DNA of 64,000 bases from Callorhinchus milii (Eukaryota). The DNA is taken from the NCBI RefSeq assembly GCF_018977255.1, contig NW_024704746.1, positions 39,990,001 through 40,054,000 of the forward strand, given 5' to 3'. A program made the translations under genes and the position numbers. Each line of letters begins with the position of its first letter. Position 1 is the stretch's first letter. This document shows, one piece after another, positions 612-26,516 of the stretch. Below the pieces are notes generated by a model. That model made no database searches, was not told the DNA's origin, and saw nothing but the letters and a program-made list of their open reading frames with translations.

Positions 612-1491
612 CCTTCTAAGGTAGCCACAGTATCATCTTCCCACTACACCATAGCAAGTTCATGGTTGAATCAAAATAACATAGCAATGCCCCTGATCTC
701 TGAAACACTCTCCCTAAATTCATTCCCTTTACACCCGTCCTCTCTGCTTTCAAAATTGTTCTAAAACATTCTCTCTCTTTAGCTGTACGTTTGGTTACCT
801 CCCTCCTAAGCCTTATCTCCCATCCTGCTTGAGCTCCTGCTCGGTCTCTGTGGAGCATGTTGAGATATTTTCCTGCATAAAAGAGGTTATATCATTGCAA
901 ATTGCTGCTGTTGAATTGTTAGTTTCCTGACACTGTGTATTACTCTTGAACATCTACACAGATTGTACTGTAATTTTACTGGAGTCGTAAAAGACACTAG
1001 TTTTCCTTATCGTTGCTTTTGAAAATAGTCTCCCACTGCCTAAAGGTCAAAGTTTGAAAATCCTTTGCCCTCAGTCCCACCATTTCCCTCCAGAATATAT
1101 AAATTATTGCTTATCTAGAACACTCAAGCCGAAAAAAGATAGGTAAACATTTTTTAAAAAAATGAAAGCATTGGATATAGTAAATGCACAAGGCACATTA
1201 CCAGTCAGTTTGGATTTGGCACTAACAATGTTTCCAACATTTACCAACCACTGGCCATCGTTGTTAAAAGCTAAAGAACACTTTCAAGAGACAATGGCAC
1301 ACGAAGAACACCCGAACAACACCAAACCCATCAATATAACAGAACAGAATCAGCAGGAAAGCTTGCACACAAGTACAAAATATCAGCGTACAGCACAAAC
1401 ATCTTCAGAAGCATTAACAGCGGCAGCACAAATACTGCAACACAAAGCACTTAAGTTTAGAAAATTCTGAGATGAACAATCAAACTGGTAC

Positions 1492-1551
1492 CTTAATGGA
1501 TGCTGAAGACCGAACTGATAAGAGGGGATCATCCACAAGATAGGACAATCC
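1492..1551 (-). CDS. KCND2: Probable alternatively spliced cassette exon, 60 bp, phase 0/0: GLSYLVDDPLLSVRSSASIK, homologous to the Kv4.3 long-isoform insert
   Basis: The minus strand reads T-rich tract...ttaccatatag|GGATTGTCCTATCTT...TCCATTAAG|gtacca. The first 14 aa are identical to the mammalian Kv4.3L insert GLSYLVDDPLLSVRTSTIK, and it sits at the same position, directly after ...LEKTT. Confidence 0.92.
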
Positions 1552-2384
1552 CTATATGGTAACATGCCAACAAAAAAGAAAAAAATAACCAATGCATCTT
1601 AATAGGTGTAACATCAGCATTGTGAACAGAAACATCAGCATCCTTGCCGTTAGCTTCATTACATGGGAATGTTACACAGTTAACCATTATCTGTGAACAT
1701 GACACATTGCTCAGGTACATTTAAGAAGAAATCATAGTCAACTTACTTTTTCTTAAACAAAACCATTAGTTGGTGGAAATAAATTAGACTGACCAATACG
1801 GCAAAAAAAAACTTTGAAGAGCACATATGAATATGGTTTTCAAAGTTTATTGCATTATGTGATCTTATTCTAACCTGTTTTTTTGCATGAATTATTTTCA
1901 GGTTTCACTTTTAGAGATGACAGGTGAATTTTCTCTTGGTTTTAAACCTCAAAGAAGTTTTTGGTAGTTACCCCCAGTTGAATGCCAATTTTATATGTTG
2001 CCCCTTTTGATTTTAGTTGGCAGTAAGATTTCTGAATAGTTGGATAGTTTAAGAAAAGCTTCAACTGATTTATCTCACCAGTAAAGGCTTCCATTAAATT
2101 TGAATAACTTTGAAGCAATACCTAGGTGGGGAAAGATGGGTTAACCTGGTTTATTACCAAATGATTAGTAATAAATTCAAGATCAGGGAAAAGGTTTTCC
2201 AGAATTTTGTACATAATTAGTTCCCAGACATTTTGAAGCAAAATTGGGTTAACAGATTTCTATCCTACGTGAAGAATTCCAATATCTTTCACAGTGAGGT
2301 AGGGTTCTGTAAATTTGAATGCACATTGTGCTGACAACAAGGTGTGGGTTCAGTTATCATACAGAAAGCATTGGATATACTATT

Positions 2385-5112: not shown

Positions 5113-5208
5113 CGTGGTTTTCTCTAAGCAGTGTAAGAGATGGTGATGCTGCCTTTCAAATGAAGACCCCGTCTTCGCCACTAGGGCTTGTTCTTCATCA
5201 TTAAACAT
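5113..5208 (-). CDS. KCND2: Kv4 channel exon, 96 bp, phase 0/0: [32 protein letters not shown]
   Basis: The minus strand reads gaatttccag|ATGTTTAAT...AAAACCACG|gtaagc. It contains the conserved Shal [16 protein letters not shown] dileucine (dendritic targeting) motif. Confidence 0.96.
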
Positions 5209-6329: not shown

Positions 6330-6428
6330 CTGCTCCAGTGATTCACTCAGTAAGCCATTGCGCTTGCTTTGCATATACGCATTAGCACTCCCACTCTTTG
6401 CCACACGAATTCGAGCAAGCCTGGCTTT
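6330..6428 (-). CDS. KCND2: Kv4 channel exon, 99 bp, phase 0/0: [33 protein letters not shown]
   Basis: The minus strand reads tgtctgtacag|AAAGCCAGG...CTGGAGCAG|gtaata, in frame after the 163-bp exon. [17 protein letters not shown] matches Kv4.2. Not in the ORF track in this frame. Confidence 0.96.
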
Positions 6429-7362: not shown

Positions 7363-7773
<411 letters not shown>

Positions 7774-16777: not shown

Positions 16778-17460
16778 AGCGTGGCTCAGTTGGCAGCGCT
16801 CTTGCCTCTAAATAATAATCCTTGCATTTGATATAGCGCTTTTCACATCTTCTAGATGTCTCAAAGCGCTTCACAGAATATACTGTAAAGTGAATTGACT
16901 GTACATTTGTGGGTGAAATGCAGCAGCCAATTTCACACAGCAATGTCCCACAAACAGTCATGGATTGAGTAACCAAATTATTATCGTGTTTTTTTTCTTG
17001 AGGGATTATTATCAGGCATGTGGAGCAAGGAAACTTGCCCAAGGTTTTACCCTGCCGGGAATCAAACCCAGGTCTCTCGCTTGTGAGGCAAGTGCTCTAA
17101 CCACTGAGCTACAGGACTCCACACCTAAATCAGGTGTGGGTTCAAACCCCACATTGAGACTTGAAACTCTACCGTCTAGCCTGACAATAAAATGCAGTGC
17201 TGGGGGTGTGTGCTGCTTTATTGGAGGTGCTGTACTTCAGATAAGATATTAAACCAAGGCCCGTCTATCTGTCCAGGTGGCCTTTAAAGATCCCATGTCA
17301 CTATTCAAAAAGAGAAGGGAGTTTTTCCCAGTATCCTAGACACCACACCTCCAAATAACAGTTAGTGGGACTTTGCTGTGTGCAAATTAGTATACCCTGT
17401 GAAATGCTTTGGATGTCCTCCCGAGAAAAGTGCTGCATCAAATATAATTATTATTATTTT
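16778..17460 (+). mobile_element. Older full-length Deu-SINE interrupted by a younger SINE
   Basis: The head gcgtggctcagttggcagcgctcttgcctctaaat breaks at 16813 and resumes at 17125 with ctaaatcaggtgtgggttcaaacccc, then the Deu core and tail. Confidence 0.8.
16811..17123 (-). mobile_element. Young full-length tRNA-derived SINE (SINE2-1_CM-like)
   Basis: Head tgtggagtcctgtagctcagtggttagagca with A and B boxes, (ATT)n tail, flanked by the CTAAAT duplication. Confidence 0.9.
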
Positions 17461-21939: not shown

Positions 21940-22256
21940 AATAATAATAATCCTTGCATTTGATATAGTGCTTTTCACATCTTCTAGACATCTCAAAGCA
22001 CTTCACAGAATATGTTGTAAAGTGAATTGACTGTATATTTGTGGGCGAAACGTGGCAGCTAATTGCGCACAGCAGTGTCCCACAAACAGTTGTGGATTGA
22101 AAATGACCAATTTATTATTGTTTTGTTTTTTGGAGGGATTATTATTAGGCGTGTGGAGTAAGGAAACTTGCCCAAGGTTTCGCCCTGCCTGGAATTGAAC
22201 CCAGGTGTCTCGCTTGCAAAGCGACTGCTCTAACCACTGAGCTACAGGACTCCACA
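21940..22256 (-). mobile_element. Young full-length tRNA-SINE
   Basis: Near-identical reverse complement of 24988-25308. Confidence 0.92.
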
Positions 22257-24987: not shown

Positions 24988-25308
24988 TGTGGAGTCCTGT
25001 AGCTCAGTGGTTAGAGCACTCGCTTTGCAAGTGAGAGACCTGAGTTCAATTCCAGGCAGGGCGAAACCATGGGCAAGTTTCCTTACTCCACACAGAGCCT
25101 GATAATAATCCCTCCAAAACCAAAAACAATAATAAATGGGTCATTTTCAATCTACAACTGTTTGTGGGACATTGCTGTGCGCAATTGGCTGCCGCGTTCG
25201 CCCACAAATATACAGTCAATTCACTTTACAGTATATTCTGTGAAGCGCTTTGGGATGTCCTCCCGACGTGAAAAGCGCTATATCAAATGCAAGGATTATT
25301 ATTATTAT
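24988..25308 (+). mobile_element. Young full-length tRNA-SINE (best reference copy in the window)
   Basis: A box tagctcagtgg, anticodon-like loop tttgcaa, B box agttcaattcc, 3' Deu-like segment, L2-type stem-loop tail and (ATT)n. Older SINE fragments flank it at 24846-24980 (-) and 25325-25515 (+). Confidence 0.92.
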
Positions 25309-26323: not shown

Positions 26324-26516
26324 TGTGGAGTCCTGCAGCTCAGTGGTTAGAGCACTCACCTCAAAAGTGAGAGACCTGTGTTTGTTTCCCGGCAGGGCCA
26401 AATGTTGGGCAAGTTTCCTTACTCCACACCCTCTGTTTACCTAGCAGTAAGTATCGAACCCAGGTCCTCTCACTTGCAAGGCGAGTGCTCTAACCACTAA
26501 TCAACAGGACTCCACA
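26324..26516. repeat. Fold-back element made of two inverted SINE 5' heads
   Basis: tgtggagtcctgcagctcagtggttagagcactc... pairs with ...gagtgctctaaccactaatcaacaggactccaca. Confidence 0.85.

Follow-up and report, generated by a model that had tools for sequence, protein, structure and literature searches.

Papers as recent as July 2026 treat the insert that sets the long form of Kv4.3 apart from the short one as a feature that no other Kv4 family member has, in a human context (PMC5296356; bioRxiv 10.64898/2026.07.03.735752). A 60-base exon of this type lies in a stretch of the Callorhinchus milii genome (G000:C5:39990001-40054000; 64,000 nt, hereafter the window) beside exons with Kv4.2-like residues, which raises the question of which Kv4 gene carries it, how old it is and what it does. 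Our analysis places the exon in KCND2, and we hold it probable, at about three chances in four, that the 60-base KCND2 cassette is a homologue of the Kv4.3-long insert, that it originated in an ancestral vertebrate Kv4 gene and that it tunes regulation of the channel by KChIP.

The cassette exon and its gene model

The gene runs on the minus strand of the window and extends beyond both of its edges:

1492..1551, minus strand: KCND2 alternative cassette exon, phase 0/0, 60 bases, residues 491-510 of the 651-aa isoform
1552..1590, minus strand: cassette acceptor TAG with its T-rich tract, which ends ~17 bases 5' of the AG
1486..1491, minus strand: cassette donor GT, deviating from consensus at +4 to +6
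5113..5208, minus strand: KCND2 exon 4, 96 bases, with the dileucine/KChIP-binding helix at its 3' end
6330..6428, minus strand: KCND2 exon 3, 99 bases
7582..7744, minus strand: KCND2 exon 2, 163 bases, pore end and S6
G000:C5:40.179 Mb: KCND2 exon 1, ~180 kb upstream of exon 2
C5:39989450-39989203: KCND2 exon 5, just left of the window
C5, from 39987773: KCND2 exon 6, just left of the window

Read from 1551 to 1492 on the minus strand, the cassette translates as GLSYLVDDPLLSVRSSASIK and stands in-frame between LHCLEKTT and NHEF. It is separated from the LHCLEKTT exon (5208-5113) by an intron of 3,561 bases, and exon 5 begins 2,041 bases past it, beyond the window edge. The two strands of the window together hold 459 open AG-(57/60/63 bases)-GT candidates; of these, the cassette scored 73 against a KCND3-type insert and the runner-up 8. 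The cassette is a real exon, not a chance match. Its donor departs from the splice-donor consensus, as does that of the KCND3 copy described below. The dileucine motif in the exon 4 helix is taken from PMC3683040.

An earlier note, made from the letters of the window, had described a phase-0 exon of 60 bases with a pyrimidine tract, AG and GT next to the LHCLEKTT exon, and this was borne out on the DNA; the Kv4.2-like residues that it reported in the neighbouring exons are seen as described in exons 3 and 4.

Two further features of the gene were observed. The Rfam potassium-channel RNA editing signal RF00485 matches over exon 2 (window 7636-7750, minus strand, 82.8 bits); this match probably reflects the conserved S6 coding sequence, RNA editing itself being only putative. 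Intron 1 contains four tRNA-like matches of 43-56 bits (window 17047-17118, 22180-22251, 24993-25064 and 26329-26400), which are likely the heads of tRNA-derived SINEs.

The cassette-bearing gene is KCND2

Searches of the C. milii assembly revealed two Kv4 loci, on contigs C5 and C19. A KCND1 locus was not found in these own-genome searches; KCND1 is present in sharks and rays, and its absence from the assembly is either a lineage loss or an assembly gap. Letter for letter, C5 exons 2-6 with the cassette are the tail of RefSeq KCND2 isoform X1 (XP_007903173.1, 651 aa), and without the cassette the tail of isoform X2 (XP_007903174.1, 631 aa).

Trees were built on the constitutive exons, with the cassette taken out first and with full-length proteins selected by hand as rows, each lineage being represented by one or two. 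In the 31-protein tree, the C5 gene groups with shark and ray KCND2 (support 99/95) within KCND2 (96/91), and the C19 gene falls in KCND3 (100/100). The 27-protein tree, which includes KCND1 and an invertebrate-type outgroup, again puts the C5 gene in KCND2 (96/93) and the C19 gene in KCND3 (100/100); here the pairing of KCND2 with KCND3 has support of only 87/83, and the cyclostome branch has no firm placement.

The neighbouring genes give the same picture. TSPAN12 lies tail-to-tail with the C5 gene ~9 kb downstream (E 2e-5) and an ING3 exon lies 43 kb downstream (E 8e-9), while the downstream neighbours of the C19 gene are a GPCR, DDX20 and FAM212. For comparison, we take the human order to be TSPAN12 tail-to-tail with KCND2 and ING3 beyond, and DDX20 and INKA2/FAM212B downstream of KCND3. 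These neighbour exons were found by direct DNA scans of 180 kb and 170 kb, in which a composition score picked out 146 and 145 open frames; the small tetraspanin and ING exons next to the gene had escaped Pfam searches of the whole genome. Against solved structures, the C5 protein scored higher with Kv4.2 (1192 bits) than with Kv4.3 (1078 bits). Because the cassette-free trees, the TSPAN12/ING3 neighbours and the RefSeq match agree, the cassette-bearing locus is KCND2 (Kv4.2), not KCND3.

On C19, the GPCR between DDX20 and KCND3 is a rhodopsin-type open frame of 387 residues (L022:544-1704, plus strand; G000:C19:915544-916704). Each Kv4 contig also holds three clustered long-frame Kv matches (G000:C5:29.28-29.38 Mb; C19:8.11-8.15 Mb), which presumably fit paralogous Kv1 clusters.

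The cassette is both included and skipped

RNA support for splicing comes from run X1, one of 4 runs aligned out of 12, over a stretch comprising exons 5 and 6; runs X8 and X9 gave repeat only and run X2 scattered low depth, and neither result bears on expression. Run X1 behaves as RNA, since its depth reaches 224 and 140 on exons 5 and 6 and is ~2-10 in introns outside a repeat, and since a joint bridges the 1,429-base intron between the two exons. At the start of exon 5, one loose end matches the end of exon 4 over 29 letters, corresponding to the skip junction, and a second matches the end of the cassette over 28 letters, corresponding to the inclusion junction; both were read by eye, each on one assembled contig. 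Both KCND2 forms are thus made, as judged from this RNA run, and the cassette is alternatively included and skipped at the junctions into exon 5. RefSeq likewise holds both C. milii forms as predicted isoforms.

A second copy in KCND3 and the spread of the insert

The KCND3 gene of the same genome carries its own copy, so that each of the two loci holds one:

C19:928033-927974: KCND3 cassette copy, 60 bases, phase 0, at a junction identical to that of the KCND2 cassette

The two cassettes share 45/60 bases and 14/20 residues (70%), whereas outside the cassette the same paralogues are less alike, at 62, 55, 49 and 47% identity for exons 3-6.

The insert was then counted in annotated proteins among the matches listed, with up to 15 members per cluster, as proteins with the insert over KCND2-labelled (or cyclostome Kv4) proteins reaching exon 5, with isoforms counted separately. 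On these counts it is present in 7/12 cyclostome Kv4 proteins and in the KCND2 of cartilaginous fish (sharks and rays, 11/29), coelacanth (1/3), lungfish (1/2), frogs (6/14), turtles (6/14), crocodilians (4/8) and monotremes (1/3, the platypus; the one echidna protein is without it). It was not found in the annotated KCND2 of therians (0/38), birds (0/29), squamates (0/13), ray-finned fish (0/12) or caecilians (0/2), nor, among the matches listed, in any of the 141 helix-anchored proteins among 154 annotated for KCND1. It was not seen in the 56 helix-anchored sequences among 146 new distant representatives, a weak test for invertebrate Shal, as one sequence per cluster hides isoforms and the vertebrate long forms are absent from this set too. 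KCND3 inserts extend from bichir (20 residues) through tetrapods (19), and zebrafish Kv4.3 has no such region according to PMC2270284. Five inserts without homology to the cassette, seen in models P0059, P0065, P0072, P0079 and P0202 (mammalian KCND2 and gar KCND3), together with two more in KCND1 models, were left out of the counts as probable mis-predictions.

Lamprey Kv4 models come in pairs with and without the insert. Since lamprey and hagfish Kv4 carry it, the exon is likely older than jawed vertebrates, and these protein comparisons make it very probable that it has one origin, in the ancestral vertebrate Kv4, before the cyclostome-gnathostome split and the KCND2/KCND3 duplication. KCND2 has likely lost the exon separately in ray-finned fish, squamates, birds and therians, as the annotation suggests, and KCND1 likely lacks it. 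Such repeated loss suggests that the exon is dispensable in KCND2. The platypus KCND2 insert makes the mammalian loss a therian one.

Other variants were seen among these proteins. The lamprey models (P0094, P0123-P0132) show, after exon 3, a further alternative stretch of 9 residues that is independent of the cassette, and RefSeq labels the lamprey gene KCND1, yet the tree does not put it there. Non-teleost ray-finned KCND2 models (P0081, P0101, P0102, P0105 and their partners) are paired 33 residues apart (594/627, 595/628 and 596/629), the length of exon 3, which may point to another skipping event in these fish. Invertebrate-type Shal proteins P0282 and P0286 run into unrelated sequence past the LEKTT junction; the intron position is therefore likely old, and the divergent ends may be other variants there or mis-predictions.

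Conservation within the insert

Among the matches listed, 22 distinct inserts could be compared. Position G1 is kept in 22, L2 in 21, S3 in 21, Y4 in 19, L/I/V5 in 22, D7 in 22 and L11 in 20. A terminal S/T-x-K occurs in 12 of the 22 (again among the matches listed), hagfish included, and S-I-K ends both the window cassette and the genome's own KCND3 insert; the motif is kept in none of the 9 distinct bony-vertebrate KCND2 inserts and is missing from the lamprey insert. As far as these sequences tell, the conserved part is the first half of the insert, not the PKC site. The earlier note had called the exon a PKC cassette: the S-I-K motif is indeed there, but with 0/9 bony-vertebrate KCND2 inserts keeping it, PKC control is probably not the conserved function.

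A proposed role at the KChIP interface

The structure of Kv4.2 with KChIP1 shows the segment S472-D495 filling a crevice of KChIP, and the H491A/F493A/V494A mutation abolishes the speeding of recovery by KChIP1 (PMC8566240). The cassette is inserted inside this segment, between T489 and N490 (human Kv4.2 numbers): exon 4 supplies the helix on one side, and exon 5 begins with the codons of the H491/F493/V494 loop on the other. Human Kv4.3L shows an up to 8-fold smaller current gain with KChIP2b and slower inactivation than Kv4.3S (PMC5296356), and its residues 488-498, which include a DXXLL motif, lower palmitoylation (bioRxiv 10.64898/2026.07.03.735752). These 11 residues, the palmitoylation determinant of Kv4.3L, are identical in the window cassette. 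In human heart failure, the long form changes in a different way from the short form (bioRxiv 10.64898/2026.07.03.735752).

Given the fixed first half, the insertion inside the KChIP segment and the human Kv4.3L data, we infer a swap of the contact loop. Inclusion would leave H491, F493 and V494 (human Kv4.2 numbers) 20 residues farther from the dileucine helix and would put G-L-S-Y-[L/I/V] in the place of the loop, with Tyr and an aliphatic residue at the positions of F493 and V494, a register match of Tyr with Phe that was noticed after the fact. Such a swap would lower the KChIP-driven current gain, alter inactivation and lower palmitoylation, as in human Kv4.3L; the terminal S-I-K would add PKC control as a further layer, retained only in cartilaginous-fish KCND2 and in KCND3. 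Against this stand the frog KCND2 inserts (3/22), in which Y4 is His and the Tyr is lost. On balance, by analogy with human Kv4.3L, we lean slightly towards an exon that swaps the KChIP contact loop and so tunes KChIP regulation of the channel.

Alternative explanations

The earlier note had left two readings of the locus side by side, a long Kv4.2 isoform sharing its cassette with KCND3 and a KCND3 gene with retained ancestral residues, in which case the cassette would mark only deep conservation of Kv4.3L. The latter could appeal to the window peptide being nearer to the human Kv4.3L insert (PMC5296356) than the genome's own KCND3 insert, but the phylogeny of the constitutive exons and the TSPAN12/ING3 synteny refute it, the structure scores and the RefSeq naming go with Kv4.2, and a separate KCND3 locus adjoins DDX20 on C19; its probability is close to nil. 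The long Kv4.2 isoform, upheld by the trees, the neighbours and the C19 copy, could still owe its exon to later gene conversion or copying from KCND3 instead of inheritance. Among codons for the same residue, synonymous differences between the paralogues are fewer in the cassette (4/14) than in exon 2 (31/52; Fisher p = 0.068), so that an ancient conversion event keeps some plausibility, and the KCND2 inserts of cartilaginous fish are closer to the KCND3 inserts of tetrapods than to the tetrapod KCND2 ones. Low synonymous change is, however, usual in alternative exons, the intron sequence around one copy bears, to the eye, no resemblance to that around the other, the two genes lie on different contigs, and lamprey and hagfish Kv4 carry the insert at the identical junction. 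We regard conversion as a slim prospect and inheritance from the ancestral gene as the better account.

As to function, the exon might be a relic that is rarely included and no longer does anything in KCND2: its splice sites look weak, several large clades have annotated KCND2 without it, and the RNA gives junctions and no inclusion ratio. That the frame of 60-63 bases has stayed open with its first half almost fixed across cyclostomes, sharks and tetrapods argues otherwise, as do the inclusion junction assembled from run X1 and the paired isoforms annotated in many species, and a leftover seems quite improbable. It is also unlikely, if less so, that the conserved job of the exon is a PKC phosphorylation switch corresponding to T504 of human Kv4.3L. 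Here the S-I-K of both C. milii copies and the 12/22 inserts with S/T-x-K are in favour, as is the role of T504 in the inhibition of human Kv4.3L by PKC (PMC5585193); but according to that study the KChIP2b difference does not depend crucially on T504, and PKC acts alike on the long and the short form in rat, and the motif is missing from the bony-vertebrate KCND2 and lamprey inserts. KChIP tuning by the first half of the insert remains our preferred reading.

Significance

The exon itself is not new, as RefSeq already lists the isoform for many species; C. milii KCND2 X1 and X2 and long forms of many non-therian KCND2 genes are annotated, an outcome that the earlier note had itself named as counting against its reading. 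Of its evolutionary claims, the ancient origin is likely right, the date in early jawed vertebrates is likely too late in view of lamprey and hagfish Kv4, and the loss from KCND2 would hold for therians but not for mammals as a whole. The literature searched, with most subscription papers outside its scope, yielded no account of a long form of Kv4.2 or of the ancestry of the cassette, and nothing on either point was found in PMC11179411 and PMC13709427. What is known is thus the annotated isoform, and what would be new is the reading of its ancestry and that of the KChIP loop. Shared alternative exons are common between genome-duplication paralogues, and the value of the finding is limited for this reason and by the RefSeq annotation.

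Taken together, these readings would make the "Kv4.3-specific" exon all that therians still keep of a splice switch of the first vertebrates, a look-alike of the KChIP loop with PKC control as a lineage-dependent add-on and with at least four losses from KCND2; we offer this full account tentatively, at a little under even odds. The half kept for ~500 million years, the date that applies to the retained half, would be the KChIP-segment half that lowers palmitoylation and not the PKC half, and it gives a testable structural explanation of the differences between long and short Kv4.3. If true, the shark, turtle, platypus, frog and lamprey variants form a ready series for mapping the role of the human Kv4.3L insert. 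The comparison is also a caution that a long form of Kv4.2 exists in non-therian vertebrates.

Comparison with known systems

Our comparison reveals that the window cassette and the human Kv4.3L/Kv4.3S cassette (KCND3, residues 488-506) both follow LHCLEKTT, are near-identical over the first 14 residues, have DxxLL and a terminal S/T-I-K, and are included or skipped in-frame. The window cassette differs in lying in KCND2, in having 20 residues instead of 19 and in carrying Ser for Thr504, and its function is only predicted. RefSeq isoform X1 (XP_007903173.1), identical over exons 2-6 to the C5 exons plus cassette, is a computed gene model; isoform X1 models also exist for other non-therian KCND2 genes, with no evolutionary or functional reading attached. 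The insert is absent from the best 4 of 11 PDB sequences matched, as seen in the alignments. In the Kv4.2 KChIP-binding segment S472-D495 with its Shal dileucine motif (PMC8566240), the cassette splits the segment, and by analogy the effects of Kv4.3L on KChIP2 modulation and palmitoylation may extend to the long form of KCND2.
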